DNA from: Candidatus Saccharimonadia bacterium
Lineage (GTDB): Bacteria > Patescibacteriota > Saccharimonadia > UBA4664
NCBI GenBank assembly: GCA_041743505.1
Contig: JBGTMQ010000017.1
Span: 15,680 to 79,679, forward strand
Direction: 5' to 3'
Length of the DNA: 64,000 nt
Positions 1,446-57,802 of this stretch are shown one piece after another (the first letter of the stretch is position 1; every line of letters starts with the position of its first letter). Below the pieces are notes generated by a model that was not told where the DNA came from, did not search any database, and worked only from the letters and a program-made list of their open reading frames with translations. The position numbers and the translations under genes are program-made.

Positions 1446-2531
<1,086 letters not shown>

Positions 2532-2574
2532 CCCGTTACGCTATTACTACAAGATAGTAACCGAACAGAAACCG

Positions 2575-2594
2575 TACTGTCAACTCCCCGGTAA
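2575..2594 (-). promoter_or_regulatory. recA promoter -35 region (cggggagTTGACAgtacgg on the minus strand), 17-nt spacer to a TTACTA -10 that overlaps a TTACTA-N5-TAGTAA palindrome
   Basis: TTGACA hexamer about 45 nt upstream of the recA start; the same 37-nt segment recurs at 4846-4882. Confidence 0.45.
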
Positions 2595-2648
2595 TTATCC
2601 CCTAGATACATAACACTTACCCTTACTCCCAACTGCTATAATTGGGCC

Positions 2649-2807
2649 ATGAGTGACATAGCCAAAAAGCCGGTTAAACCGGCTCAAGAAAAGCGCCCGC
2701 TAGGCTGGTCTGACCGCCCAGAGCGGGACAAGCTACCCCAAGACCGGGAGGATGCGAGGGAGTCTTTTGACGCGCTGTTGGATAAGGTGAGCAAACCCAA
2801 GAAATAA
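2649..2807 (+). CDS. candidate small ORF (52 aa, MSDIAKKPVKPAQEKRPLGWSDRPERDKLPQDREDARESFDALLDKVSKPKK), divergent from recA
   Basis: Clean ATG-to-TAA frame in the recA upstream gap; below the 60-aa cutoff of the ORF track; no RBS or homology support. Confidence 0.2.
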   Translation: MSDIAKKPVKPAQEKRPLGWSDRPERDKLPQDREDARESFDALLDKVSKPKK

Positions 2808-3016
2808 GCATTGGCAGTCTCTTGACCCGATTGCTAAAAGCGGCTATGCTCCAGGTAAGTCGTCGTGCCGGTTTGTCCCAGCACACGGCCCACGGTCAAC
2901 TAGCCGTGAGTAAAATCAAAGCCTTTAGGTAAGTTTGGGCGGGCTGGCGCTGCCAGTCGTTAAAAACTAGACCCGCACGGCGGTACGCGCCACCTTCCGA
3001 CAGTCACACTGGCGGG

Positions 3017-3205
3017 GTGGAGGGTAAAGGTTTGGGATACATTATTTTCCGACCCAACAGCAACCCCCAGCCGCGACGTAAAACTCCGGCCGAGAAAGAG
3101 CTGGAGGAGCAGCAACAAGCTGCTACGCTCGCCTATGTCCGGGAGCATTTTCAAAAGCTCCAACTACAAAAGGCTGACAACCATAAAGGTCGCAGCCCAG
3201 AGTAG
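3017..3205 (+). CDS. hypothetical small basic protein (62 aa)
   Basis: ORF followed 10 nt later by a clean intrinsic terminator hairpin. Confidence 0.3.
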   Translation: MEGKGLGYIIFRPNSNPQPRRKTPAEKELEEQQQAATLAYVREHFQKLQLQKADNHKGRSPE

Positions 3206-3215
3206 TGTCCCAGCA

Positions 3216-3244
3216 AACAGCACCTTCGGGTGCTGTTCCTTGTT
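3216..3244 (+). terminator. rho-independent terminator (AACAGCACC-TTCG-GGTGCTGTT then CCTTGTT)
   Basis: Perfect 9-bp stem with tetraloop followed by a T-rich run. Confidence 0.5.
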
Positions 3245-3296
3245 AAAAGACTATACCGCGTGCGCTTATTCGTCAATAGCACAAGCGTTATGCCTC

Positions 3297-3608
3297 TTAT
3301 GCTACTCTTTTTAGCAACAGTTCGAACATCGGCTCGTGACTCTTACGGTTCGAGTACCGCCAAGCGTATTCAGCCGCGTACAGGGGTAAATATCGCTTAT
3401 CGACATGCCGGTACACGGTAGTAATTCCATTCTTCAAAATAGACCAAAAGCCCTCTATGGTGTTGGTGTGGATCTCGCCCATAGTATAACGCTCAGAGTG
3501 GTTAATAGCGCTGTGTGGATAGCCGAGACGCGGCAAGACCTTATAAGCCAGCAATTGATCACTCATAACCCTAGAACCGCGTGAGACGTTAGCCTGGACG
3601 TGCGGCAT
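3297..3608 (-). pseudogene. IS1595-family (ISXO2-like DDE) transposase, C-terminal fragment only
   Basis: HTNTIEGFWSILKNGI...VYRHV...YLPLYAAEYAWRYSNR matches the conserved C-terminal block of IS1595 transposases; no N-terminal zinc-ribbon or DDE-N half is present upstream. Confidence 0.6.
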
Positions 3609-3749
3609 CAGCTCTGGCGCCGTAACGTGATCGACAACCGCTGTTCGAACTCGCCCAACCAGCGCTACGGCAGCATAGAAAATAAGCTGACCCTTACCGA
3701 AAACTAGAGCTGCAATCAGCCAATATGGTGACTTGAGCGGTGAGTGCGA

Positions 3750-4133
3750 TTAAGAATGTTTTTTTGAATGAAACCATTTCTTGCCAAGCACAACCCCGTA
3801 GGCGGTGAGTAAACTTATTAGAACAATGTCAAAAAATCGAATGTGGTTCCAATAATCAGTTGGCATAAAGCTTGCAAGAGTCCAGTTGGTAAATCGGATA
3901 TGCGCCATAATCAGGTAGTAAGAAGCGAGGCTGAATGCGATCCAAGCTAGCGGCGTGAACCACACTCTAATGTAGCCACGTTTGTAGACCTGTCGAGTGA
4001 TGTATAGCCCGGCCACTATCGCAGTGGCGTCGTGAAGTATGTACTGTCCGTGAACAAATACTAAGGCAGCTATCAGCCAATACGCTGTCTGGGCTATAAG
4101 CGCGATCAAGAATGTTTTTTTAAATGTGGTCAT
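3750..4133 (-). CDS. small polytopic membrane protein (about 4 TM), candidate immunity or partner of the upstream secreted protein
   Basis: 127-aa hydrophobic ORF directly downstream of and co-directional with the secreted Cys-rich protein; its N-terminal 20 codons are duplicated as a truncated copy at 3720-3777. Confidence 0.5.
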   Translation of the reverse strand: MTTFKKTFLIALIAQTAYWLIAALVFVHGQYILHDATAIVAGLYITRQVYKRGYIRVWFTPLAWIAFSLASYYLIMAHIRFTNWTLASFMPTDYWNHIRFFDIVLISLLTAYGVVLGKKWFHSKKHS

Positions 4134-4202
4134 AATAATTGCTTTATTTGGCGACGGAGGTTGGTAAGCCCTCCGCCGCCATATGTTACTACCGCGTTGC
4201 CG

Positions 4203-4658
4203 CTACCAGCCGCCACCACCGTTGCCGGGTGCCCCGCACTTCCAGTTATAGGCATTCCACATGGGTGCGTAGTAGTTACTTACGTATGCTTTGGTGCCCG
4301 GATGATAGGTAGAGCAATAGAGTTGCGTGTCAACGCCGCCGATGATCTGCCATTCACTACCCCATTCGGCAGAGGCCGTGAGAGACTTATCGGTGCTGGC
4401 AGAAAAGCTGCCACCTGTACTGTCGCTTATTTTACGCTTGCAGTACCAAGTATAAGGGTTGGCCGGATCTTGATACCAAGCATCCATTGTTTGGTGGAGG
4501 CCGCCGTACTTGAGATGACAGGCACTTGCCATGTTAATCCCGTAGCCGCCATCAGCGGCGCTGGCCGCTGTCGCATTCACAGCCATGGTGCCGAAACTCA
4601 CCCCAACGAGGGTGGCGAGAACGGCGAGAAACCTTACAAACCGCTTGGTGACAGACAT
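4203..4658 (-). CDS. secreted cysteine-rich small protein (signal peptide, 4 Cys, C-terminal GGGGW), bacteriocin-like or toxin-like candidate
   Basis: N-terminal signal peptide ending in ASA-A; mature part about 115 aa, Trp/Tyr/Cys-rich; no recognisable family. Confidence 0.5.
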   Translation of the reverse strand: MSVTKRFVRFLAVLATLVGVSFGTMAVNATAASAADGGYGINMASACHLKYGGLHQTMDAWYQDPANPYTWYCKRKISDSTGGSFSASTDKSLTASAEWGSEWQIIGGVDTQLYCSTYHPGTKAYVSNYYAPMWNAYNWKCGAPGNGGGGW

Positions 4659-4848
4659 GCCACAACCTTTCGGGTCTGGGATTGGATGTAAAGAAGGACG
4701 CTCAATTGTCTTGGGGGACGGTCGAATTGAGTTAGCCAGAAGTTACCATATGACTGACAAGGATGCAAATTTGCGGCTCTGGTTTGGCATTTATGGCCAG
4801 GCGGTTTGCGTGCCCATCGAAAACCTACCCGTTAAGAACCGATCAAAA

Positions 4849-4867
4849 GCCGTACTGTCAACTCCCC
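4849..4867 (-). promoter_or_regulatory. copy of the recA -35/spacer promoter segment (cggggagTTGACAgtacgg), driving the 4658..3750 operon
   Basis: 37-nt near-identity to the recA upstream segment at 2558-2594; about 190 nt upstream of the secreted-protein start. Confidence 0.45.
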
Positions 4868-6705
4868 GTAACTGCCTGCCTCAATGCCGCCCGAATATCC
4901 CCCTGACCCAACACATGAAGCGACGTCATAGCCCGCGTCAACGCCACATACAACTGATCCTGATTAAGCCGCCGCCGCTCCGCCGCCACAGTCACAGATT
5001 CCTCTGGCACCGCAAACGTGTCAGCCTCAATGCCTACCAAGCAAACCGTATCAAACTCCACTCCCTGAGCCTCACGGATTGTCAGGCAATGAACTCCCGG
5101 CCGACCCGCCAACCCCGTCGCATAGGCCTCTATCGTATCCACGTCCTTGGCCAGCACCCCGATAGTACCCCCAGCCGGCACCTCCAATTGCTTAATGTAC
5201 GAAATCGCCGCCACCTCATCAGTCGCCAATTCCACCACCTCCGGGCCTTCGCTCAAACCCTCCGGCAACTCCACGTCATACCCCAACTCGCGAATATACG
5301 CCAAGATCTGCTTCGTATTGCGATAAACCTTATGTAACTTAATGTGCCGCTCAGCCGCAATCGTCTCACCAATCTCCCGCCAATCACGAATCGTCCCAAA
5401 TTGCGTCTGCTGAGCCAAATCACCAATATAGAGCATGGCTTCAGTCCGGCCGCTTACAGCACCTCGCATCAGCCGCAACTGCTCCGGCAGGTAATTCTGA
5501 AATTCATCCACCAGCACCAACGAATAGTTAAGCGGCTGCATGGTCACCTTGGTCCGAACTTTGCCGCCCGGCAAGAAAGTGTAGCTCTCCACACCGGCCA
5601 TCAACCGTCCCTCAGTCCGCTGCTTAGCCACCAGCAACATTGTCAAATCATGGCGGTCAAGCGCCCCTTCCCCCAGCTCGCTTGCCAGCATCTTCAACTG
5701 CCCATGCGCCAGATAGGCCGCATAAGCCGCCTTCAAAAACTGATCCGGCCGCTTGGCGTCAAACCGCGCCTCCAGTGGCTCATGAAGTGCCTTCAGTTTG
5801 GCCGCTTCATAGGCGTCCTGCTCAACTTCATTAGCCCCGGGTCGGACCCGAAAAAAGTAGGCCCTCAGCCCCAGCCGCTCCAACGCCCATTCCGCAAAGG
5901 TAGTTATCCGCACGTCATGAATACCCAGTTCCGGTAGCAAGGTAGAGAAATACTCCTGCGTCCGCCCGTCCTGAACAAATACCATAATCGCCTCAGCCGG
6001 ATAAAGGTCGGTTGTCTCTGGCGCTTGGCGAAGATAGGCAATGCGGTGCAGCGCCAACGTGGTCTTACCGGAGCCGGCCGGCCCGGAAATCACCAACGGC
6101 CCCCGGTGATCCGCCCGGATAACCTGGTCCTGGGCCTTTTCCATCTGGGCCACAATCTCCGGCAGCACAAAGCCTTCTTTGTGAGTCGAAAAGTGGTCTT
6201 GATAAATCAGTTCCCGGGCATCATCCTCCGACTCGCTAGTCATAAACCGGATCTCGCCGCTGGTAATCATAAACTGGTCCCGCCGCTGCAACCGCCCCGA
6301 CACCTGCCGCCCATCCGGCGCAGCGTAGCTAACCTCTCCCGGCTCCTCAAACCGCACCCGCGCCACCGGCGCCGCCCACGAATAAATACCGTGCTCACTA
6401 GCCGGAAATTTGGCAAAATAATAAGCCTGTGCCGGCCGGCCGGGCAGCTCCAAATCACACCGGGCAAAGTATGGCGATGGCGCTAAGGCCTGAAGCTGCT
6501 GCTTCATCATCGTCGTATTTGTGCCCACCGCCAAAGCCCGCAGCCGGTCCTCATACTCGGTATCCCCCTCAATTTCCTTGAAGGCCTCCCAATCCCGCTC
6601 CAAAGTCGTCATCACCTCACCCAGCCGCACGTCCAACTGCCGCCGGGTCTCCGTCAAGTGCTCTTTAGCTTCACCTAGAAGCTGCTCCTTGTGGGTTCGG
6701 TCCAT
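4858..6705 (-). CDS. UvrD/HelD-like superfamily-1 DNA helicase
   Basis: Walker A GPAGSGKTT, VDEFQN (motif II), UvrD_C-like GVEFDTVCLV; N-terminal accessory domain of about 190 aa as in HelD. Confidence 0.7.
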   Translation of the reverse strand: MDRTHKEQLLGEAKEHLTETRRQLDVRLGEVMTTLERDWEAFKEIEGDTEYEDRLRALAVGTNTTMMKQQLQALAPSPYFARCDLELPGRPAQAYYFAKFPASEHGIYSWAAPVARVRFEEPGEVSYAAPDGRQVSGRLQRRDQFMITSGEIRFMTSESEDDARELIYQDHFSTHKEGFVLPEIVAQMEKAQDQVIRADHRGPLVISGPAGSGKTTLALHRIAYLRQAPETTDLYPAEAIMVFVQDGRTQEYFSTLLPELGIHDVRITTFAEWALERLGLRAYFFRVRPGANEVEQDAYEAAKLKALHEPLEARFDAKRPDQFLKAAYAAYLAHGQLKMLASELGEGALDRHDLTMLLVAKQRTEGRLMAGVESYTFLPGGKVRTKVTMQPLNYSLVLVDEFQNYLPEQLRLMRGAVSGRTEAMLYIGDLAQQTQFGTIRDWREIGETIAAERHIKLHKVYRNTKQILAYIRELGYDVELPEGLSEGPEVVELATDEVAAISYIKQLEVPAGGTIGVLAKDVDTIEAYATGLAGRPGVHCLTIREAQGVEFDTVCLVGIEADTFAVPEESVTVAAERRRLNQDQLYVALTRAMTSLHVLGQGDIRAALRQAVTGS

Positions 6706-8421: not shown

Positions 8422-8496
8422 AAAAAGCGTATAAAACCTTTGTAAGCAGCGAAGTCAACAGAAAAAGTGTTAGCCCCTTGGACTTAAGTTTATACG

Positions 8497-8922
8497 TTAT
8501 CGACGCCAATTGCGTTTTAGTTCGCGGATATATACAGCCGCGATAATAGCAGCGGCAAGGTAGATTGTAATTATCATAATAATGGGGATATCATTGCCAT
8601 GATAAACGTATGCTCTCAGCACCATTGGAATAATGAGAGCGACAATCAAGGGAAAAACGACTATCGAAGCCATAAGAGCAAGCAAGTTCTTCCTATAAAT
8701 TCCTATAATAATTATGGAGAGAAAAACACTAACGCTCATAGTCATTAGTAAAAGCAGAATAGGAAGACCAGTTTCAAAATTACCGGAAAGTCCATACGCT
8801 ACTATGGGCAAAAATATAAAAGCTACTACTATCAAAAACGCCCAGATAATGATCGGAGCTGATAGTAGACAAGTCAGAATAAAAACAGGGGTTAGCCCCT
8901 TAGCCGTAGGCTTCATATACAT
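8497..8922 (-). CDS. hypothetical polytopic membrane protein (AT-rich gene)
   Basis: 141-aa, Ile/Leu-rich with 4 predicted TM; GC content far below its neighbours. Confidence 0.4.
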   Translation of the reverse strand: MYMKPTAKGLTPVFILTCLLSAPIIIWAFLIVVAFIFLPIVAYGLSGNFETGLPILLLLMTMSVSVFLSIIIIGIYRKNLLALMASIVVFPLIVALIIPMVLRAYVYHGNDIPIIMIITIYLAAAIIAAVYIRELKRNWRR

Positions 8923-8971
8923 AGCATACCATCATAAACATGCCTGAGTAAGCTCAAAATCAGCACAGATA

Positions 8972-9000
8972 TTTACAAAGCAGCAACAATATGCTATAAT
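8972..9000 (+). promoter_or_regulatory. sigma70-type promoter TTTACA-17-TATAAT
   Basis: Consensus-like hexamers with 17-nt spacing about 85 nt upstream of the 9085 start. Confidence 0.5.
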
Positions 9001-9084
9001 TAAATATTAGTGCAGAAAGAGCTCCCTATGGACTCTTTGTTTTTCTGCCTGCTCATCGACATCCACAGGGAGGACTGGTCATCC

Positions 9085-9558
9085 ATGTCCAGACGAACAA
9101 AGATGTGGGGTTCGCTTTTGCTGGTAGCAGTAATCGCTTTAGCAGGCTTTTTTCTACTCCCTCGCAACAGCGAAACTGTCGCCCCAGCTCATGGCAGCGG
9201 TACCGTAGCAGGTGCATCACCTGCTGAACAGATGCCGCCAACCAACATCCAAGCTCTTCAGCAAGCTATCAATAGCAGCGACGTGGGGACTCAGGCCGGG
9301 ACTCTGGCAAGCACTACCCGCTCTGACTTCCTGCAGCAGAACCAGCTGATGCTACCACCAGGCATTACCGTTCGAATCCTAGCGGGTCAAGCAGAGAACT
9401 CCGTCGTCACCCAGAACACATTCTTGGCAGATGGCGATAACGGTCAAGTTACCGCTGAAGCGTTAGACCAGGACCGCCGCGTTGTACAACACTATGTCCT
9501 GCGCCTCGTCCGTGAAAACGGTGCCTGGCTCATTCTCTACACAGAGGAGACGAAATGA
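9085..9558 (+). CDS. hypothetical membrane-anchored protein (N-terminal TM)
   Basis: GGGAGG RBS 11 nt upstream of ATG 9085; stop overlaps the start of the next gene (ATGA). Confidence 0.45.
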   Translation: MSRRTKMWGSLLLVAVIALAGFFLLPRNSETVAPAHGSGTVAGASPAEQMPPTNIQALQQAINSSDVGTQAGTLASTTRSDFLQQNQLMLPPGITVRILAGQAENSVVTQNTFLADGDNGQVTAEALDQDRRVVQHYVLRLVRENGAWLILYTEETK

Positions 9559-10934
9559 ACGCCAAGTTGCTACGATGGATCGGTGCGATTCTTACCGCAA
9601 TGATGGCCGTTTTGTTCAGCTCGTTTTTTGCTCCTGCCCAGGCGAGCGCTAAAGCAGGCTGCTTACCGGATATCGGCAAGCGGTTGCCTGTTATCCTAAT
9701 CCATGGCTTTGGTGATCGGGCGGCTGTCTGGGGTAGCGCCGACGATCCCAATTCAACGCTACATGAAGTCGACAATCTGTTTAACGTATATGCCGAGACC
9801 TTCGACTACGAGACCACAAACAGGCATTGGGTCGATGACGCAAACATTGGAACTCGCTTGGCTCAAAGAATCGCCTGTATAGCAACGTCATCAAGGCAAG
9901 CCGGCGGACCTGGCAAGGTGACGTTAGTTGTCCATTCCATGGGTGGACTCGCAGCCAGATATGCAGCTACACAAACGATGGATGGCCGCAGTTTGTCGAG
10001 TGATATCGGTCTGGTAGCCACCATTGGTACACCAAATACGGGTAGTGGGCTAGCCGATGCTGGCTCAATTCTCTGCTCTCCGATTGCCGAAACACGTAAG
10101 CTAGAACAAAGTGCTGAACATGATAACAGTATTTGTACAGGTGGTGCCGTCGATGCTATGCACAACCATTCCCAGCAAATCGACGATCTGCCCCAACTAC
10201 CCAGCACCATTCCCGTTGTGACAATCGCCGGAGACGTTACAGTTACGTACTCGGTCTTTCGAGTCCCACTAAACGATACGGATAGCGATCTTGTCGTCAC
10301 CAAGCCATCTGCCCTCAAGGGGGCAGCTAAGATCCAATCGATTGGTGGCGAAAAGGTAGTAGCCTGCAGCACCAATATCCAGTCAATCGACCCAGTTGCT
10401 GTCGGTATGGGTATTGGCCAAACTGCCGGCAAGCTGGCATTCAAACAGCCCGTGCTACCCTCATGCTGGCACAACGGCCTGCCAAGTCACCAGGAGGTCA
10501 AGCAAAGCGTAACTGACGCGATCAAAGCCTATCAGAGCAAGTTGAAAGCCCAAGCCGACGCCGCCAACGCCAACCAGGCGCTTGCACCATACATCGGCGT
10601 CTGGACGGTCCATGGCGGTAAGCTGGAGATCCGGTCCGACCGCACTGGCACCCAAACTATCAGTCTCGGATGCGGCGCCGCTGCCATCTGCAACGAAGTT
10701 GTCCAGCTCTCATTCGCTGGCCCGTCCAATGGGAGCCTCACCGCAAAAATAAACCGCGTATCCGTACCGGACGGCTATCAGCCCAGCGTGAAAGTTGGTG
10801 ATTCCTTCACACTCACACTACAGCGTGACCGCCATGTATTACACACCATCTGGTCTGATGGCAAAGATCACGGCAACCCTTTCTGGTGCGACGCGTTCGC
10901 AACAACACAAAGTTTTACTGAATGTGGCCAGTAA
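9555..10934 (+). CDS. secreted alpha/beta-hydrolase (lipase/esterase; GxSxG = HSMGG) with a C-terminal Cys-containing domain of unknown function
   Basis: Signal peptide; ILIHGFGD...VVHSMGG lipase class-2/DUF676-like motifs; C-terminal half of about 200 aa unrecognised. Confidence 0.55.
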   Translation: MNAKLLRWIGAILTAMMAVLFSSFFAPAQASAKAGCLPDIGKRLPVILIHGFGDRAAVWGSADDPNSTLHEVDNLFNVYAETFDYETTNRHWVDDANIGTRLAQRIACIATSSRQAGGPGKVTLVVHSMGGLAARYAATQTMDGRSLSSDIGLVATIGTPNTGSGLADAGSILCSPIAETRKLEQSAEHDNSICTGGAVDAMHNHSQQIDDLPQLPSTIPVVTIAGDVTVTYSVFRVPLNDTDSDLVVTKPSALKGAAKIQSIGGEKVVACSTNIQSIDPVAVGMGIGQTAGKLAFKQPVLPSCWHNGLPSHQEVKQSVTDAIKAYQSKLKAQADAANANQALAPYIGVWTVHGGKLEIRSDRTGTQTISLGCGAAAICNEVVQLSFAGPSNGSLTAKINRVSVPDGYQPSVKVGDSFTLTLQRDRHVLHTIWSDGKDHGNPFWCDAFATTQSFTECGQ

Positions 10935-11257
10935 CAGCACGCCCACAAGGACGGAATCTACGGCAAACCAGCCGGCAGGTCTCCGTCCTTTTTATTTAGT
11001 GTATTTCTCAAACTAATAAGTTACAGAACCCGCCAGCCCGAAGGATGCTCTGCAAATAACCCCGATTGGCGCAGAGCTCCGGGACAAGAAAACCGTGATA
11101 GTAGATAGCCAAATAACTCTCAGCCTCATACCCGGCGACTACAAACATGTGCTACGCGAAGGAGGCACCATAGCCGGACTTAATCTTGCCAAACCCACTC
11201 ATGCTAAAGTGGAAAGCAGCCACCCCCGGCACCTGCCCCTCGACAAAGGAGTCCCCC

Positions 11258-11839
11258 TTGGACCTCACGGCACGTGCCTTTGCCAATGTCCTGATCGAGG
11301 CCAAAGTTTTTATGCAAGGTGATTTTGAACTCACCGATGGCAGCCACTCAAGTTTCTACATCAACTTTGGTGCAATCTGCCGGCCCAGCCACCTCAGTAT
11401 TCTTGGCCACTGTTTCGCCACCCAAATCATCCAGTCGGGGATCAAGCTTGACGTCGTCTATGGACCGGCCTACAAGGCCATCGCCATGGCCACCGAAACG
11501 GCCAAAGCCCTGTGGCAGGGCTACGGACTCGATATACCGTTCGCCAGCAGCCGCCGGGAAAAACGCAGCCACGGTATGAAGAATCCTCATCTCGGGGCAC
11601 CACTTCAAGACAAAAAAGTCGTCGTAGTCGACGATGTAGCCACCGGAGGCGATTCCAAACTGGACGCCTGTGAGTACGTCATGGACAAAGGCGGCACTGT
11701 CACGGGCTTTATCATTGGCGTTGACCGTACTCACAACCCGGCTGTCCTCGAGCAGCTCACAGCAAAGACGGGGGCACCCGTCTTTGTCATCATGCAACTA
11801 GAGGACCTTCAGCAGATCGCCGCCCAACATGTAGCATGA
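11258..11839 (+). CDS. pyrE: orotate phosphoribosyltransferase-like type-I PRTase
   Basis: Aligns with PyrE: GDFELTDGSHSSFYINF, VYGPAYKAIAMAT, PRPP-binding VVVVDDVATGG; TTG start 7 nt after the AAGGAG RBS. Confidence 0.55.
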   Translation: MDLTARAFANVLIEAKVFMQGDFELTDGSHSSFYINFGAICRPSHLSILGHCFATQIIQSGIKLDVVYGPAYKAIAMATETAKALWQGYGLDIPFASSRREKRSHGMKNPHLGAPLQDKKVVVVDDVATGGDSKLDACEYVMDKGGTVTGFIIGVDRTHNPAVLEQLTAKTGAPVFVIMQLEDLQQIAAQHVA

Positions 11840-11842
11840 CCA

Positions 11843-11872
11843 CTGTCCGGCCTTAGACCCCACCAAGGCCGG
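11843..11872 (+). terminator. intrinsic terminator (GTCCGGCCTT...AAGGCCGGAC then TTCAAACTTT)
   Basis: 10-bp GC-rich stem after the pyrE-like stop. Confidence 0.45.
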
Positions 11873-11948
11873 ACTTCAAACTTTCGAGCAATCCCTATGC
11901 TAAAGTAATAAAAGCCATCTGGCATCGCCCTTCGACAAAGGAGCCTTG

Positions 11949-12524
11949 ATGAATCTGGCAGATCATGCCTTTGCCAATGTGCTCATCCAATCCAATGCCT
12001 ACATGGAAGCTAGTCTCTCTGGTGGAGCTGGAACTTGTTTTATCCGTCGCCTCAATTTGGCCAAAATCCGCCGGCCTGAACACCTAGACACTCTGGCGAG
12101 CGGGTTCGCCCGGGCCATCATGCAGTCAAATGTGGCCTTCGATGTCATTTACGCCTTATCAGCCAAATCAATCCACTTGGCTGTCGCAACATCCCTTGCC
12201 ATCTGGCAGGGATATAATTTCAATAGACCCTTCGCCACCGCCAACATCACCACGTCTCTGGTCCCAAACAACCTCATCGGTGAGCCGCTCCGTCACAACA
12301 AGATCCTCATCTTGGACGACCCATCAGTTGACGACTATAGCGTCAGCGATGTCTGCCAACACATTCTGCAACATGACGGCACCGTCGCCGGTATCGTCAG
12401 CCCCGTGGAAGGCCTCCGGGATCCGGCAGTTCTACGCCAGATCGCTAACGACGCGGAACTGCCTGTCATTTCCGTAGTCCGCCTCGAAGAGCTTCGGAAA
12501 CTCGCCGGCTACCTCGCAGCCTAA
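11949..12524 (+). CDS. degenerate PyrE-like paralog (PRPP loop replaced by ILILDDPSVDD), probably a catalytically inactive pseudo-enzyme
   Basis: Collinear with the upstream PyrE-like gene, including a duplicated leader (atgctaaagt...cgacaaaggag); the Thr-Gly-Gly of the PRPP loop is lost. Confidence 0.5.
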   Translation: MNLADHAFANVLIQSNAYMEASLSGGAGTCFIRRLNLAKIRRPEHLDTLASGFARAIMQSNVAFDVIYALSAKSIHLAVATSLAIWQGYNFNRPFATANITTSLVPNNLIGEPLRHNKILILDDPSVDDYSVSDVCQHILQHDGTVAGIVSPVEGLRDPAVLRQIANDAELPVISVVRLEELRKLAGYLAA

Positions 12525-12526
12525 CA

Positions 12527-12566
12527 ACAATCCGGCCTTGGGTAACTCCAGGGCCGGATTTATTTG
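12527..12566 (+). terminator. intrinsic terminator (AATCCGGCCTTGG...CCAGGGCCGGATT then TATTTG)
   Basis: Stem-loop followed by a T-rich stretch. Confidence 0.45.
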
Positions 12567-12598
12567 ACTAATATAGTAAGCGCGCTTACTATATTACC

Positions 12599-13018
12599 AT
12601 GAAGATTATTGCCGCCGCCACTGCCATCACAACCGCCAAGCCTGGAACCGTTTTTCGTATCTGGTCCGACGTCGAACATTGGCCACTCTGGGATGTCGAA
12701 ATCACCTGGGCTAAATTAAACGGTCCTCACGCCGTCGGTACGACCGGCGCCTTAAAACCAGTTAACGGCCCCAGGACCAACTTCACCGTCATTGAAGTCA
12801 TCCAAAATCAATCCTTTACTGACGTCTCGCATCTGCCCGGCGCCAAGCTCCAATTCATACATCAGCTCGCCCAAACCGGCGATATGACCCAAGTCACTCA
12901 CACTGTATCAATCTCCGGGCCTTTAGCCTGGCTCTGGGAAAAGATCCTTGGCCACAATCTCCGCCGTGGCTTACAACCAGCCGTTCAAGGACTAATCAAG
13001 CTGGCAGAAAAAGCATGA
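12599..13018 (+). CDS. SRPBCC (START/Bet v1-like, polyketide-cyclase-type) family protein
   Basis: 139-aa; Trp-rich signature WSDVEHWPLWD typical of SRPBCC ligand-binding proteins. Confidence 0.5.
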   Translation: MKIIAAATAITTAKPGTVFRIWSDVEHWPLWDVEITWAKLNGPHAVGTTGALKPVNGPRTNFTVIEVIQNQSFTDVSHLPGAKLQFIHQLAQTGDMTQVTHTVSISGPLAWLWEKILGHNLRRGLQPAVQGLIKLAEKA

Positions 13019-13431
13019 AATATTGGATCGCCACCGTCTCCCACAACCACGTCAAACGTGGCCTGGAGCTTGGCGTCGCACAAATTGGCCATGGTAAACG
13101 CACCGGTCTGGCCCGCCTGCACGCCGGCGACTGGCTGGTCTACTACTCACCGCGCGAGAGTCCGGATGGCAACATCCCAGTCCAGGCCTTCACCGCCATC
13201 GGCCAAGTAGCCGGCGAAGCCATTTGGCAAGCCAATGAGGGCGATTTCAAGCCTTATCGCCGAAAGGTCAATTACGCTCGCGCCACCGACGCCACGATCC
13301 GTCCCTTATTAGAGCAGCTAAACTTCACCCAAGACAAAGCCAATTGGGGCTATGCCTTTCGCTATGGATTATTTGAAATCAATGAGCATGATTTCAGCCT
13401 CATTGCTCGTACCATGGACGTACAACCATGA
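13015..13431 (+). CDS. EVE (PUA-like) domain protein
   Basis: 138-aa; MKYWIATVSHNHV...GDWLVYY pattern resembles EVE/PUA-like proteins; ATGA overlap with both neighbours. Confidence 0.45.
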   Translation: MKYWIATVSHNHVKRGLELGVAQIGHGKRTGLARLHAGDWLVYYSPRESPDGNIPVQAFTAIGQVAGEAIWQANEGDFKPYRRKVNYARATDATIRPLLEQLNFTQDKANWGYAFRYGLFEINEHDFSLIARTMDVQP

Positions 13432-13895
13432 CAGCACACGATCCCGGCCTTAGCTCCGCTTACGACGCTCCTGAAGTCAGCCCGGGCTTCCTGCTCTGGC
13501 AGGTCACAAACCATTGGCAAGCCATGCAGCGGGCAGCCTTAAAGCCTTTCGGACTGACTCACGTACAGTTCGTCCTCCTGGCCTCACTGGTCTGGCTTGA
13601 AACTAATGACGAGCCCGTGACCCAAAAGTACCTGGCCGGGCATGCCGGCATCGATGTCATGATGACTTCACAAGTAGCCCGCACACTGGAGACAAAAGGC
13701 CTGATCAAGCGCTTACCGCATCCTAACGACCGGCGTGCCATCTTATTGACCGCTACCACGGAAGCAGTTGTCCTGGTCAATCAGGCCGTCCTTGCCGTAA
13801 AAAAAGTTGATCAACAGTTATTTGGTTATCTGGGCCACCGGCAAGATAATTTTATTGAAGCCTTGCAATTACTACGCGCAAATTTTAACTGCTAA
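13428..13895 (+). CDS. MarR-family transcriptional regulator
   Basis: Winged-helix segment VTQKYLAGHAGIDVMMTSQVARTLETKGLIKRLPHPNDRRA characteristic of MarR. Confidence 0.75.
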   Translation: MTAHDPGLSSAYDAPEVSPGFLLWQVTNHWQAMQRAALKPFGLTHVQFVLLASLVWLETNDEPVTQKYLAGHAGIDVMMTSQVARTLETKGLIKRLPHPNDRRAILLTATTEAVVLVNQAVLAVKKVDQQLFGYLGHRQDNFIEALQLLRANFNC

Positions 13896-13943
13896 ATACA
13901 AAACCGCCATGTCATGCAAAAGCGCACAACATGGCGGGGTGAA

Positions 13944-14477
13944 TCAGGCGCCGAAGACGCCTTCGTAGTAATTTTGGTCCCGCACTGAAGTACAGCCGGG
14001 GCCAAAAATCGGTGGTGGCAGCTCAGTCGGCCATTGCCCGGTCGCCCAAAACACATCGATGGACCAAGTGCAAAAACCATTACGGCCATTACCATCGCCG
14101 CGAGGGTGGGCGTACTCGTACTGCTCATACCGCACCAACGGCGAATTGCTCCGGTCGTCGGCGAACTCAGCTGCCCAGGCCTTTAGCCGCTCCTCAATCT
14201 CATAAGCTGGAACCGCCTCACTACCTGCCAAGAACACAGCCGGACCAACCCGGTAAGTAGCATAATCTGGCTCAATCAAGCCGGCCAGCTTAGCCTCCAA
14301 AGCCAAGAGATCGGCCGATGTAACCGTCTCGGGTCGACGGTTGTAAGCAAACTGCTTAGCCAAAGCATATGCCGCCTGAAGACCTGCGATCTGGCGAGGT
14401 GCCGTAGCGCCCTGCAGCTCACATTCGAGCCAACACAGCTCTATATCACGTTCAGTCAGACTCACGGGCTGAGTCAT
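13944..14477 (-). CDS. hypothetical protein
   Basis: 177-aa ORF with coding-like composition; no family recognised. Confidence 0.4.
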   Translation of the reverse strand: MTQPVSLTERDIELCWLECELQGATAPRQIAGLQAAYALAKQFAYNRRPETVTSADLLALEAKLAGLIEPDYATYRVGPAVFLAGSEAVPAYEIEERLKAWAAEFADDRSNSPLVRYEQYEYAHPRGDGNGRNGFCTWSIDVFWATGQWPTELPPPIFGPGCTSVRDQNYYEGVFGA

Positions 14478-14651
14478 ATCGGCCTCCCTTCCAAGGCGGA
14501 TACAAGATTACATCAGAATTTCTGAATAAGTATATTATACACCCAAATCCAATTTTGCGCAATACAAGGCTGCCTGTAAAATCGGCATTTTCACCGGAAC
14601 CATAAATGAACCAGCAAGACTGCGAACTCCGATCCATTGTATACTCCGGAC

Positions 14652-16091
14652 ATGAAAGTAGCATTTATCGTACCTTATGAAGGTAAAAAGGTTTACCAAC
14701 AAGCCTACGATCAAATCTTGTCCGCCATCGAGACCAATGGCGGTTTAGTTCTAAGTCCTGAAAAAACCGATGAGTATGGCCATGCCCTAGCCACCGGCCT
14801 TCCAACGCATGACCTATCACGCTCGCACTATGAATTTATTCGTAAAAGCATTATCGATAGCGACGTCGTCATTGTAGAAGCTAGCTATGAAGACTTTCGA
14901 GTAGGCCACGAAACCACACTGGCGCTAATTTATCGCAAGCCTGTATTAGTAATGGCCCAACATCTTGATTTCGGAAAATTTATATATCACCCCAACCTTA
15001 CCGGTATCCATTACTACCCAACACAAGTAGCACAAATAATTAAGGACTTCCTTGACGCTGCTATCAGTCAACCACAGCAGCACCCGCAAGCGCGCATCCC
15101 GAATACATACCATCAACCGTATAAACCGGTTCGAAAACCAAAAATCATTGCCGTATTTGGTGGCATTTACGCCGACATATTTAATAAAGTTAGTCGCATC
15201 CCCCGCGAAAATGAAGTCAGCTTGAGCAGTGATTTTAAAATCTCGCTTGGCGGTAAAGCAACAAATGCCGCCGTTGCCATGGCCCGCCTCGGGAATAAAG
15301 TCATCATGCTCGGCCAACTTGGCCACGACTCTACTGCCGTAGACTTAGAGGCTACATTAATTTATGAAAGTATTAATACGGATTTCATAAGCCGCAATTC
15401 TGCGCATCCAACCGGCACAGTAGTATTGGCAGTCGACAAAAATGCTCAGTACAGCACCGTAGTACACGAAGCAGCCAATATTCAGATTGAGCTGACACAT
15501 ATTGATAACTTTTTTAAAGAAATCGACCATAACACATTAAAGCTTGATTGCCTGTATCTGACTCTTGAGGCTCAACCCGCAGCTATCGATTATATTATTC
15601 GCGAAGCATGCAAGCGGAATATTTTTATCTTCTGCGACGCCGCTCCTCATGCCCGCCCACTTAACTCGCAACTCCTATCATTGATTAATATCATCGCACC
15701 CAACCAAATCGAGGCGGAAGCAATGACAGGTATAGTGGTCGATGATCAGGCGGCAGCTCATCAGGCAGCGATGGACTTGACCCGAAAAGGAGCTCGTCAA
15801 ACAATTATTACCCTGGGCGACCAGGGCGTCTATTGGAATTCTGCCGACAGCAACAGTTATTGTTTACCCGCATTACCGGTCAAAGCGATTGACGAAGCTG
15901 GAGCAGGAGATGCTTTCAGAGGAGCTTTCATCAGCGAACTGCTTTCCTCAAAAAATACTATCAATGCTCTCAGGTTCGGAATACGCGCCGGAGCATTTGC
16001 CGTAACTCGGTTTGGCAGCTACGATTCTATGCCAACTCATGACGAATTAGCCTTCTTTAAGCCAGCCAAGCATCAGCCAGAACAACCCTAA
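14652..16091 (+). CDS. fusion protein: N-terminal nucleoside 2-deoxyribosyltransferase-like domain plus C-terminal PfkB-family (ribokinase/adenosine-kinase-like) carbohydrate or nucleoside kinase
   Basis: N-domain DFRVGHETTLALIYRKPVLV (NDT-like D-x-G..E..KPV pattern); C-domain PfkB signatures GGKATNAAVAMARLG and DEAGAGDAFRGAF. Confidence 0.6.
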   Translation: MKVAFIVPYEGKKVYQQAYDQILSAIETNGGLVLSPEKTDEYGHALATGLPTHDLSRSHYEFIRKSIIDSDVVIVEASYEDFRVGHETTLALIYRKPVLVMAQHLDFGKFIYHPNLTGIHYYPTQVAQIIKDFLDAAISQPQQHPQARIPNTYHQPYKPVRKPKIIAVFGGIYADIFNKVSRIPRENEVSLSSDFKISLGGKATNAAVAMARLGNKVIMLGQLGHDSTAVDLEATLIYESINTDFISRNSAHPTGTVVLAVDKNAQYSTVVHEAANIQIELTHIDNFFKEIDHNTLKLDCLYLTLEAQPAAIDYIIREACKRNIFIFCDAAPHARPLNSQLLSLINIIAPNQIEAEAMTGIVVDDQAAAHQAAMDLTRKGARQTIITLGDQGVYWNSADSNSYCLPALPVKAIDEAGAGDAFRGAFISELLSSKNTINALRFGIRAGAFAVTRFGSYDSMPTHDELAFFKPAKHQPEQP

Positions 16092-16101
16092 TAAACTCAA
16101 C

Positions 16102-56866: not shown

Positions 56867-57802
56867 ATGAAACGACGCACGAGAGTCTTGGCGCTGTTTC
56901 TCGGCATTATCGCCATGGTCGCCACCCTCGGAGCTTGCTCCTCGGCCACCAACACCGACCAGTGCGCCTGGGTGGTGGGCGATGGCCAAGACGGCGGCGA
57001 CCGCAACCTCCACCGGGTTGTCTACCCCGGTCAGGCTGCCAACGAGGGGGTGAACGAAGATGTTTGGTTTGTCCCCTGTAGTTACCGTAACTTCATCGTT
57101 ACCCCCCGTACTGACGTCGGTGACCGGCACGACGCCGTCCTCATCCGGACCAAGAGCCCGGACGGCCAAACACCGGGAACACCACTGAAGGTGTGGTTGT
57201 CGGCCTATTGGACTCCCAACCAGGACCGCGCCGCCATGGAAGATTTCTTGGCGCTGTGCCGAAAGTACACCTGCTACACGCAAAGTGCTGACGAGGCCGG
57301 TTCCGCCAATTACTCCACCCCGGGCTGGAACTCAATGCTACGGGAGAACTTCAGCTTCCCGATCGACCGCATTGGGCTGGTAGCAGGCACTGAGTTTGAC
57401 GACAGCCTTTGGCGTAACCCTTCCAAAGAGCAGACTGACAAACTCGCCAACCGGATGTCCGAGCTCTTCGCCGAGGAAGTCCGCCGCACTACCGGCTCCA
57501 ACAAGGACCTGTTCTGCGGATCAGGTAACTCTGCCTGGCCGGACCCCACCAAGCCTGGCGAGGGTGAGTTCAAGTGCACCCAGGTCCGGTTTGCCATTGA
57601 CCGGATCGAACCGGATGACCCGAAGCTCGTCGAGCAAACTAACCAGGCCAACGTCACCGACCAGCGCCGTCAGGATGCCGAGAAGCTTTACGGGCCTACT
57701 TGGGCGCCGTACTGGCTGGGCGTGCAGGACGCCTGCCGCGACAAGCCCAACTGCACCATCGTTGTCAGCCCCAACGGGAGCCTTCCGGTCCCCGTCCGCT
57801 GA
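56867..57802 (+). CDS. secreted lipoprotein (lipobox LGAC), Cys-containing
   Basis: Signal peptide with L-G-A-C lipobox; AGGTAAGGCAGG RBS region. Confidence 0.5.
   Translation: MKRRTRVLALFLGIIAMVATLGACSSATNTDQCAWVVGDGQDGGDRNLHRVVYPGQAANEGVNEDVWFVPCSYRNFIVTPRTDVGDRHDAVLIRTKSPDGQTPGTPLKVWLSAYWTPNQDRAAMEDFLALCRKYTCYTQSADEAGSANYSTPGWNSMLRENFSFPIDRIGLVAGTEFDDSLWRNPSKEQTDKLANRMSELFAEEVRRTTGSNKDLFCGSGNSAWPDPTKPGEGEFKCTQVRFAIDRIEPDDPKLVEQTNQANVTDQRRQDAEKLYGPTWAPYWLGVQDACRDKPNCTIVVSPNGSLPVPVR

Follow-up and report, generated by a model that had tools for sequence, protein, structure and literature searches.

A 64,000-nucleotide stretch of DNA from a Candidatus Saccharimonadia bacterium (Patescibacteriota; GenBank assembly GCA_041743505.1, contig JBGTMQ010000017.1, positions 15,680 to 79,679), which was analysed at its full length and is called the window here, carries on its minus strand a compact cassette of two genes: the first encodes a signal-peptide protein with four cysteines, the second a small protein with four predicted transmembrane (TM) segments. 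In our tentative reading, to which we assign a probability of about 0.4, the first product is an antagonistic protein exported by the Sec pathway and the second its immunity partner in the membrane, the two making up a polymorphic, mobile cassette. The reading is favoured by the strict linkage of the two genes, by their accessory and mobile site, by the combination of a conserved leader with a divergent mature part, by relics of further membrane genes, and by a possible orphan membrane gene in one related locus. While an exported protein with a membrane protector is a familiar kind of system, both protein families are new to the libraries searched.

Two protein families in one cassette

4203..4658, minus strand: gene of the secreted 151-residue protein P0001 (open reading frame scan)
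4658-4557, minus strand: signal peptide of P0001, about residues 1-34 (sequence reading)
4550-4434, minus strand: repeat 1 of P0001, residues 37-75, with Cys47 and Cys73 (family alignment)
Between the repeats: linker of P0001, Ser/Thr-rich and variable
4349-4230, minus strand: repeat 2 of P0001, residues 104-143, with Cys115 and Cys141 (family alignment)
3750..4133, minus strand: gene of the four-TM, 127-residue membrane partner P0003 (open reading frame scan, hydropathy)

P0001 begins with basic residues (K5, R6, R9) and a hydrophobic core (residues 10-27, with a Kyte-Doolittle maximum of 1.8 at residues 15-23), followed by an A-S-A motif at residues 32-34, and is probably exported by means of a Sec signal peptide. 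The mature protein of about 116 residues contains 4 Cys, 7 Trp, 11 Tyr and 17 Gly, has an isoelectric point (pI) of 6.3 and ends in the tail GAPGNGGGGW. A first-pass annotation had already described a cysteine-rich signal-peptide protein with four cysteines and a GGGGW end in the minus-strand operon 4658..3750, and had named a lipoprotein or a cell-wall anchor as the identity that would speak against its interpretation; by sequence reading, P0001 has neither a lipobox cysteine, its first Cys being residue 47, nor a C-terminal LPXTG motif.

The N- and C-terminal halves of the family are mutually homologous (hhalign probability 97%, E 8e-11). Thus, P0001 represents a tandem duplication of a module of about 35 residues with two cysteines, and each module is presumably closed by one disulfide. 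In the AlphaFold2 (AF2) model of the mature protein, which is of medium confidence (predicted local distance difference test, pLDDT, 78; predicted template modelling score, pTM, 0.68) with linker and tail at low confidence, each repeat is predicted to adopt a strand-helix-strand-strand arrangement. No fold match to this model was found in the PDB or BFVD, including the toxin, lectin and carbohydrate-binding module (CBM) structures therein. On the sequence level, P0001 has no match in Pfam or NCBIfam at E ≤ 0.1 and the secreted protein none in PADLOC or PHROG; 21 members of its family give no consistent match at E ≤ 5, and the family profile finds no sequence in the PDB at E ≤ 10.

The four-TM protein that had been proposed as the second product of this operon is borne out by four hydrophobic segments (about residues 8-27, 32-50, 57-79 and 98-117, by sequence reading) in the 127 residues of P0003, which has a pI of 10. 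As its Lys/Arg clusters are found at the N-terminus, in the loop formed by residues 51-56 and at the C-terminus, the positive-inside rule predicts a four-TM topology with both termini inside. Y18, F26, G29, Q30 and W64 are conserved in the family, H34 is nearly invariant, and N83-W84-T85 is conserved among close members; of these, the motifs GQxxxH (residues 29-34) and NWT (residues 83-85) would lie on the predicted outer face. P0003 matches nothing in Pfam, NCBIfam, PHROG or PADLOC, and thus no CPBP/Abi, DUF95-type or colicin immunity protein. Both families are undescribed in the libraries searched, and the earlier statement that neither protein resembles a family with a name stands for Pfam, NCBIfam, PHROGs, PADLOC and PDB sequences. 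In a word-indexed search of 5.8 billion proteins each of the two has a single relative, P0002 for P0001 (55% identity) and P0004 for P0003 (53% identity); a scan of the JGI metagenomes with the membrane-protein alignment yielded nothing. A tblastn match of the membrane protein at window positions 57212-57313 is weak and was rejected, there being no membrane-like reading frame at this place. Likewise rejected was a role for P0003 as a DsbB/VKOR-like disulfide catalyst acting on its cysteine-bearing neighbour, because P0003 contains no Cys.

In its size, its several TM segments and its Lys-rich C-terminus P0003 resembles a holin, and the two-gene arrangement is compatible with a lysis or export cassette, possibly a remnant of a phage or other mobile element, in which a holin-like four-TM protein would control the release or activity of a wall-binding protein. 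Insertion sequence (IS) and FtsK/SpoIIIE-like genes do occur near the cassette in the window and in a related locus, L097. However, neither protein has a PHROG match, and no other phage genes surround the cassette in any locus. The secreted protein gives no tblastn match in 50,697 phage records, and neither it, the membrane protein nor the actinobacterial homolog P0044 gives one in 72,556 plasmid records. In addition, the secreted protein has a Sec signal of its own, and no hydrolase domain can be recognised in it. We regard a lysis function as highly unlikely.

Strict linkage of the two genes

A gene of the membrane family lies immediately 3' of the secreted gene in all eight subfamily loci for which downstream sequence is available, namely the window, L001, L003, L092, L093/L096, L094, L095 and L097. 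Conserved adjacency of putative effector and protector genes, by which toxin-immunity pairs are judged, was thus found in 8/8 loci. These loci stem from at least five different samples, have different flanking genes, and range in GC content from 49 to 58%. Only the start of the membrane gene is present in L094. In L095 the membrane-family domain forms the C-terminal half of a longer open reading frame (hhalign E 4e-9); the first half of this frame of 271 codons was considered as a fused second membrane domain and rejected (hhalign probability 0.2%). The partner in L097 is homologous to the P0003 family with an hhalign E of 6e-26. No membrane gene was found beside the homolog in three high-GC (61-67%) actinobacterial loci, including one of a named Nocardia strain; the partner family is restricted to the lower-GC loci, among which the window (Patescibacteria) provides the sole taxonomic placement. 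In L093, a gene for a DUF2268 predicted Zn-protease (1088-1624) overlaps the end of the membrane gene on the same strand; none was seen in the other loci.

Could the two genes be functionally unrelated neighbours, or have lost their function and be decaying as passengers of an IS element? The cassette does lie amid pseudogene and IS debris, and both families are rare. However, both open reading frames are intact in the window, and across the loci the proteins retain 40-58% amino-acid identity, invariant cysteines and conserved motifs. Gene order, an intergenic hairpin with compensatory changes and a promoter-like element are also conserved in independent samples, which leaves this explanation hardly credible.

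Diversification and membrane-gene relics

The cassettes have diverged unevenly along their length. L001 and L003 share 90-95% of their nucleotides in the region of the signal peptide, compared with about 45% in the mature region. Moreover, the window and L003 contain extra, decayed copies of the membrane gene, each of which resembles the functional partner of another locus. In the window, the decayed copy adjoins a transposase remnant:

3656..3777, minus strand: relic of a second membrane-gene copy, about 47 codons (tblastn, DNA alignment)
3297..3656, minus strand: 5'-truncated IS1595-family transposase gene (PF12762, NF033547)

In tblastn (E 4e-11, paralog P0004), residues 1-16 match 3777..3730 and residues 15-47 match another frame at 3734..3636; according to the DNA alignment the relic carries a 1-bp insertion near 3726 and its similarity ends at about 3656. 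A truncated duplicate of the membrane gene had thus been recognised correctly in the first-pass annotation, and is longer than the 20 codons claimed there. The relic is 87.5% identical in nucleotide sequence to positions 568-686 of L003, which belong to the intact P0004 gene, and is closer to these than to the adjacent P0003 gene. The relic in L003, for its part, resembles the intact gene of L001 and has lost about 45 internal codons. In neither locus is the second copy functional any longer.

How the duplicate joins the intact gene can be read from the ends of the membrane genes. Stand-alone genes end in ...KW-LRRKSS* (L001) or ...KW-LRSK... (L097). In the window and L003 there is, after AA(A/G)TGG, a switch to TTTCATTCAAAAAAACATTCTTAATC, which corresponds to the beginning of a membrane-gene coding sequence, from about codon 3 onwards. 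The end of the intact gene, FHSKKHS*, is therefore an out-of-frame reading of SFKKTFLI in the next copy, and the apparent start of the second copy, ATG at 3777 in the window and GTG in L003, lies inside the Lys-Trp codons of the first; the relic copy has no independent start. Across this overlap (window 3750-3777, L003 913-940) the last 9 codons of the first copy, KWFHSKKHS*, share their nucleotides in a different frame with the first 9 of the relic, MVSFKKTFL, and where the window has A and L003 has G, one frame reads Lys either way (AAA/AAG) and the other retains a start codon (ATG/GTG). As the same junction is found in L003 with a differently decayed relic, the copies had become fused or overlapped before the IS-associated deletion. 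This deletion thus explains only the final truncation of the relic at about 3656, and not the origin of the duplicate. The earlier suggestion that an IS insertion and deletion truncated a second paralog holds for this 3' end, and fails for the duplicate junction, which is older and recurs in L003. The junction itself may be an old fusion scar that came to be shared between loci and was then shuffled anew, the strongly conserved 5' region allowing recombination; alternatively, the overlap may serve a deliberate translational coupling of two tandem partners.

The IS1595 remnant comprises only the C-terminal half of the DDE domain and is not a full-length transposase, as had been noted from its lack of an N-terminal half; the membrane-gene relic directly abuts it upstream. 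The PF12762 match (E 9e-27, 94 bits at a cutoff of 27) covers profile positions 51-152 of 153, and the NF033547 match (E 3e-23, 82.6 bits at a cutoff of 75) positions 109-215 of 215. No further copies of the remnant exist in the window or the fetched loci, with the exception of the identical contigs L004 and L005.

On the metagenome contig L097, the secreted gene is interrupted and consists of a signal-peptide and a C-terminal reading frame (395-842), with the membrane gene (898-1311) intact. This is the pattern expected if immunity is kept after toxin loss, and L097 possibly holds an orphan membrane gene. Adjoining the broken cassette is an FtsK/SpoIIIE-like gene at 1451-3529 (phrog_1358, E 1e-20), with a higher GC content (0.58-0.64).

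An accessory site between recA and yajQ

The nearest relative, the metagenome-assembled genome 'Patescibacteria group bacterium UBA6017', has a RecA that is 84% identical to that of the window (1446-2531), the others among the 80 best matches reaching at most 71%. The gene order in UBA6017 is rodZ-like, yajQ, a reading frame of 150 codons (read as Nudix-like), recA, recX and a PRC-barrel gene, and the yajQ-recA interval there contains only the 150-codon frame, with no trace of the cassette. In the window, recA and yajQ are spaced by about 4.1 kb, which accommodate, besides a HelD-like helicase gene (4858-6705), the secreted and membrane genes of the cassette, the relic and the IS remnant. GC content is 0.47-0.52 in the segment 3200-4800, where the GC skew is close to zero, and 0.54-0.61 in the flanking minus-strand genes, where the skew is -0.15 to -0.35. 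Given its absence from the UBA6017 interval and its distinct composition, the cassette is accessory and compositionally distinct. A comparison across strains for presence or absence had been recommended in the first-pass annotation, and the syntenic yajQ-recA interval of UBA6017 supplies a case of absence.

Two Logan contigs from SRR28170470 and SRR28170471 (L004, L005) are 100% identical to window positions 4720-2072. The starts of three independent Logan contigs coincide at the same point of the conserved leader, window position 4720 being position 1 of L003, L004 and L005. Such a shared start would be expected if the assembly had broken at a sequence that recurs in paralogous cassettes of one genome or population.

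Several neighbouring genes deserve mention. The helicase directly upstream of the cassette (4858-6705, minus strand) is a UvrD-type, HelD/HelR-like protein (NF041464, E 2e-39, below the family cutoff); HelD/HelR is a motor for the recycling of RNA polymerase. Its gene is missing from the UBA6017 yajQ-recA interval, and its composition and skew match the surrounding genome, unlike those of the cassette. Beside the paralogous cassette in L003, positions 1573-3555 encode an Otr(A)-like tetracycline ribosomal-protection protein (NF000120, E 1e-208, 694 bits at a cutoff of 900), a family best known from antibiotic-producing Streptomyces. These two genes hint that actinobacterial-type resistance genes may be housed in the islands. 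A second stretch of the window without counterpart in UBA6017, where the rodZ-like gene adjoins ftsK, extends over about 8422-16101 and includes a secreted alpha/beta-hydrolase-like reading frame at 9555-10934. In the same stretch, the reading frame 8497-8922 is low in GC (0.38) and encodes a very hydrophobic protein of 141 residues with no Pfam match.

Upstream and intercistronic elements

4740..4768, minus strand: promoter-like element, TTGCAT (4768-4763), a 17-nt spacer ending in TGg, and TAACTT (4745-4740) (sequence reading)
4659..4739, minus strand: conserved 5' leader of about 80 nt, with a Shine-Dalgarno-like GAAAGG 8 nt before the ATG
4150..4180, minus strand: intercistronic GC-rich stem-loop, GGCGGCGGAGG-(9 nt)-CCTCCGTCGCC, with an A-rich stretch between it and the start of the membrane gene

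The pattern TTGCA(A/T)-N17/18-TGnTAA(C/T)TT is kept before the secreted gene of L001, L092 and L094, and it is this conservation that points to a promoter role; a generic promoter scan did not flag the element. Much of the leader is also kept in these three loci, and positions 1-89 of L003 are 90% identical to window positions 4720-4632. Cassette and leader have no Rfam match at E ≤ 1, and a structured leader RNA is weakly supported, its predicted structure amounting to -5.95 kcal/mol.

The stem-loop between the two genes is kept in five loci (window, L001, L003, L092 and L094), and its pairing is covered by covariation: in 5 of 11 predicted pairs both sides have changed, with a consensus energy of -14.3 kcal/mol. 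On its 3' side there is an A-rich tract and no U-run in the window, and a T-run in L097. With an A-rich tract in place of a U-run, the stem-loop probably acts in processing, stability or partial termination, in favour of the upstream product.

The module family and the case for binding

How widespread is the two-cysteine module? A HMMER scan of 1.84 billion representatives gave 36 matches at E ≤ 1e-3, two of which, P0011 and P0031, were discarded as spurious, being low-complexity or giant proteins. A mere 8 reach E ≤ 1e-10, a rarity that we count in favour of the toxin-immunity reading. A scan of the GTDB species representatives with the secreted-protein alignment gave no match. Genuine family members are signal-peptide proteins of 100-170 residues with four invariant cysteines and a conserved Trp two residues ahead of both the second and the fourth, and the module follows the consensus G-[VI]-[DN]-[MV]-x-x-x-C-x(20-30)-[AP]-[YF]-x-W-x-C. 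The family is found mainly in Actinomycetota (Streptomyces, Nocardia, Skermania), where named homologs, among them WP_351988490.1 of Streptomyces sviceus, WP_157079634.1 of Skermania piniformis and a protein of Nocardia sp. NBC_01388, are annotated merely as "hypothetical" or "secreted protein". With their signal peptide and their architecture of two repeats and four cysteines, the actinobacterial proteins are true homologs of P0001; they differ from it in a shorter linker between the repeats, in residing in high-GC genomes (61-67%), and in having no four-TM neighbour in the three loci inspected. Alternative architectures include repeats in reversed order and proteins with four repeats. P0047 and P0050 have the module after an unrelated N-terminal domain, and P0030 has six modules after a weak match to the GH5 cellulase family (PF00150, E 7.8e-4, 19.5 bits at a cutoff of 23.5 bits).

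Several of these observations, together with others, weigh against a toxin. The placement of the P0030 modules behind a GH5-like match is typical of binding modules and suggests such a function, and the many Trp and Tyr residues would also suit the binding of glycans. As three actinobacterial homologs do without a membrane partner, the module is not intrinsically dangerous to its producer. Neither sequence nor fold resembles known bacteriocin, toxin or immunity proteins in the libraries searched. The linkage of the genes is what is expected of any functional pair with two components, and the same is true of their co-divergence: pairwise identities of secreted and membrane proteins correlate with r = 0.70 (15 pairs from six loci), as would those of any co-inherited pair, so that this value does not discriminate between the hypotheses. 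The split gene of L097 could be either a real pseudogene or an assembly or sequencing error. Finally, export, disulfides and topology are themselves readings of the sequence.

With the module behind a weak GH5 match and occurring without a partner in Actinomycetota, a binding role is equally conceivable for the secreted protein. It could be a non-toxic lectin or adhesin for the envelope or for glycans, attaching to a polysaccharide or cell wall such as that of a host, with the four-TM protein as its receptor, anchor or signal transducer. The position behind a weak GH5 match or another N-terminal domain, as in P0030, P0047 and P0050, is the usual one of CBMs; Trp, Tyr and Gly abound in the mature protein; most family members are small, stand-alone secreted proteins of Actinomycetota without a partner gene; and the membrane protein has its conserved residues on what is predicted to be the outer face, as expected of a binding partner. 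However, this explanation leaves the relic membrane genes, the mosaic of conserved leader and divergent mature part, and the broken secreted gene of L097 unaccounted for, and the secreted protein has neither similarity to a known CBM or lectin fold nor an anchoring motif. It is the main rival of the toxin-immunity reading, although we consider it somewhat doubtful.

Function and relation to known systems

What, then, would an antagonistic cassette look like at work? In the toxin-immunity reading, the conserved promoter and leader would drive the operon, and the intergenic stem-loop would set the ratio of the two products, either by terminating part of the transcripts or by making the upstream one more stable. 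The secreted two-module protein would act outside the cell on the envelope of a neighbouring bacterium, either a competitor or a host, and the outward-facing conserved residues of the four-TM partner would intercept or block it at the producer's own membrane, thereby conferring immunity. The cassette would have diversified into paralogs with a common leader and a divergent mature part, leaving relic copies of the immunity gene downstream, of which the one in the window would finally have been truncated by a deletion that also took the 5' half of the IS1595 element. What is shown here is the layout of the cassette, its homologies, the linkage of its genes, the covariation in the RNA and its accessory status, and what is deduced is export, disulfides, topology, the toxicity of P0001 and the immunity given by P0003. 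The bacteriocin-immunity pair that the first-pass annotation had called classic has gained circumstantial support from the linkage in 8/8 loci, the relics, the divergent mature part and L097, and has found no backing in similarity to known families.

Closest in organisation are bacteriocins such as enterocin P and those of the lactococcin 972 family, which Gram-positive bacteria export by the Sec pathway and which have a dedicated immunity gene downstream. They share with the cassette the export by a signal peptide, a gene for self-protection in the same operon and an accessory or mobile site. However, they show no similarity to P0001 in sequence or fold, and class II peptides are smaller than mature P0001 with its two putative disulfide repeats and about 116 residues. 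There is no Cys in lactococcin 972, which relies on an immunity system of the ATP-binding cassette (ABC) type, and pediocin-like immunity proteins are cytosolic helical bundles rather than four-TM proteins. In the mechanism proposed here, P0003 compares with the immunity proteins of pore-forming colicins, which have four TM helices in the A-type (Cai/Cbi) and three in the E1-type: these, too, are small polytopic proteins, located in the inner membrane, are encoded beside the toxin gene and intercept the toxin within or at the membrane. They are not homologous to P0003, though, and colicins are large multi-domain proteins of Proteobacteria that are released by lysis proteins, not Sec-exported repeat proteins. 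A further parallel is provided by the orphan immunity arrays of contact-dependent inhibition (CDI), Rhs and bacteriocin islands, where tandem, partly decayed copies of protective genes lie downstream and a conserved 5' part is joined to a divergent effector part; relics in these arrays resemble the active partner of another locus, as they do in the window and L003. Unlike such arrays, the cassette has relics of the membrane gene only and no displaced toxin fragments, and its secreted protein is not the C-terminal tip of a large delivery protein.

Patescibacteria, also known as the candidate phyla radiation (CPR), have reduced genomes and live by contact with other cells, and to our knowledge very few of their secreted effectors are understood; a literature search on CPR bacteriocins found nothing. 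Against this background, a more specific scenario can be drawn. Episymbiotic Patescibacteria may have acquired an envelope-targeting effector from Actinomycetota, their likely hosts or neighbours, and may have re-armed it with a lineage-specific four-TM protector, the result being a diversifying mobile cassette directed against hosts or rival epibionts. We hold this scenario to be unlikely; if true, it would be the first such system in the CPR, and one built on a previously unrecognised disulfide-stapled repeat fold.

Irrespective of the function, two undescribed families are delineated here, a repeat of about 35 residues with two cysteines that is widespread in Actinomycetota and its four-TM partner, and the compact cassette of two genes is directly testable for antagonism or host binding. 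If the secreted protein binds rather than kills, it would establish a new small carbohydrate- or envelope-binding module. If the toxin-immunity reading holds true, the cassette would represent a new bacteriocin-like class, and would point to the sharing of modules between the CPR and Actinomycetota.

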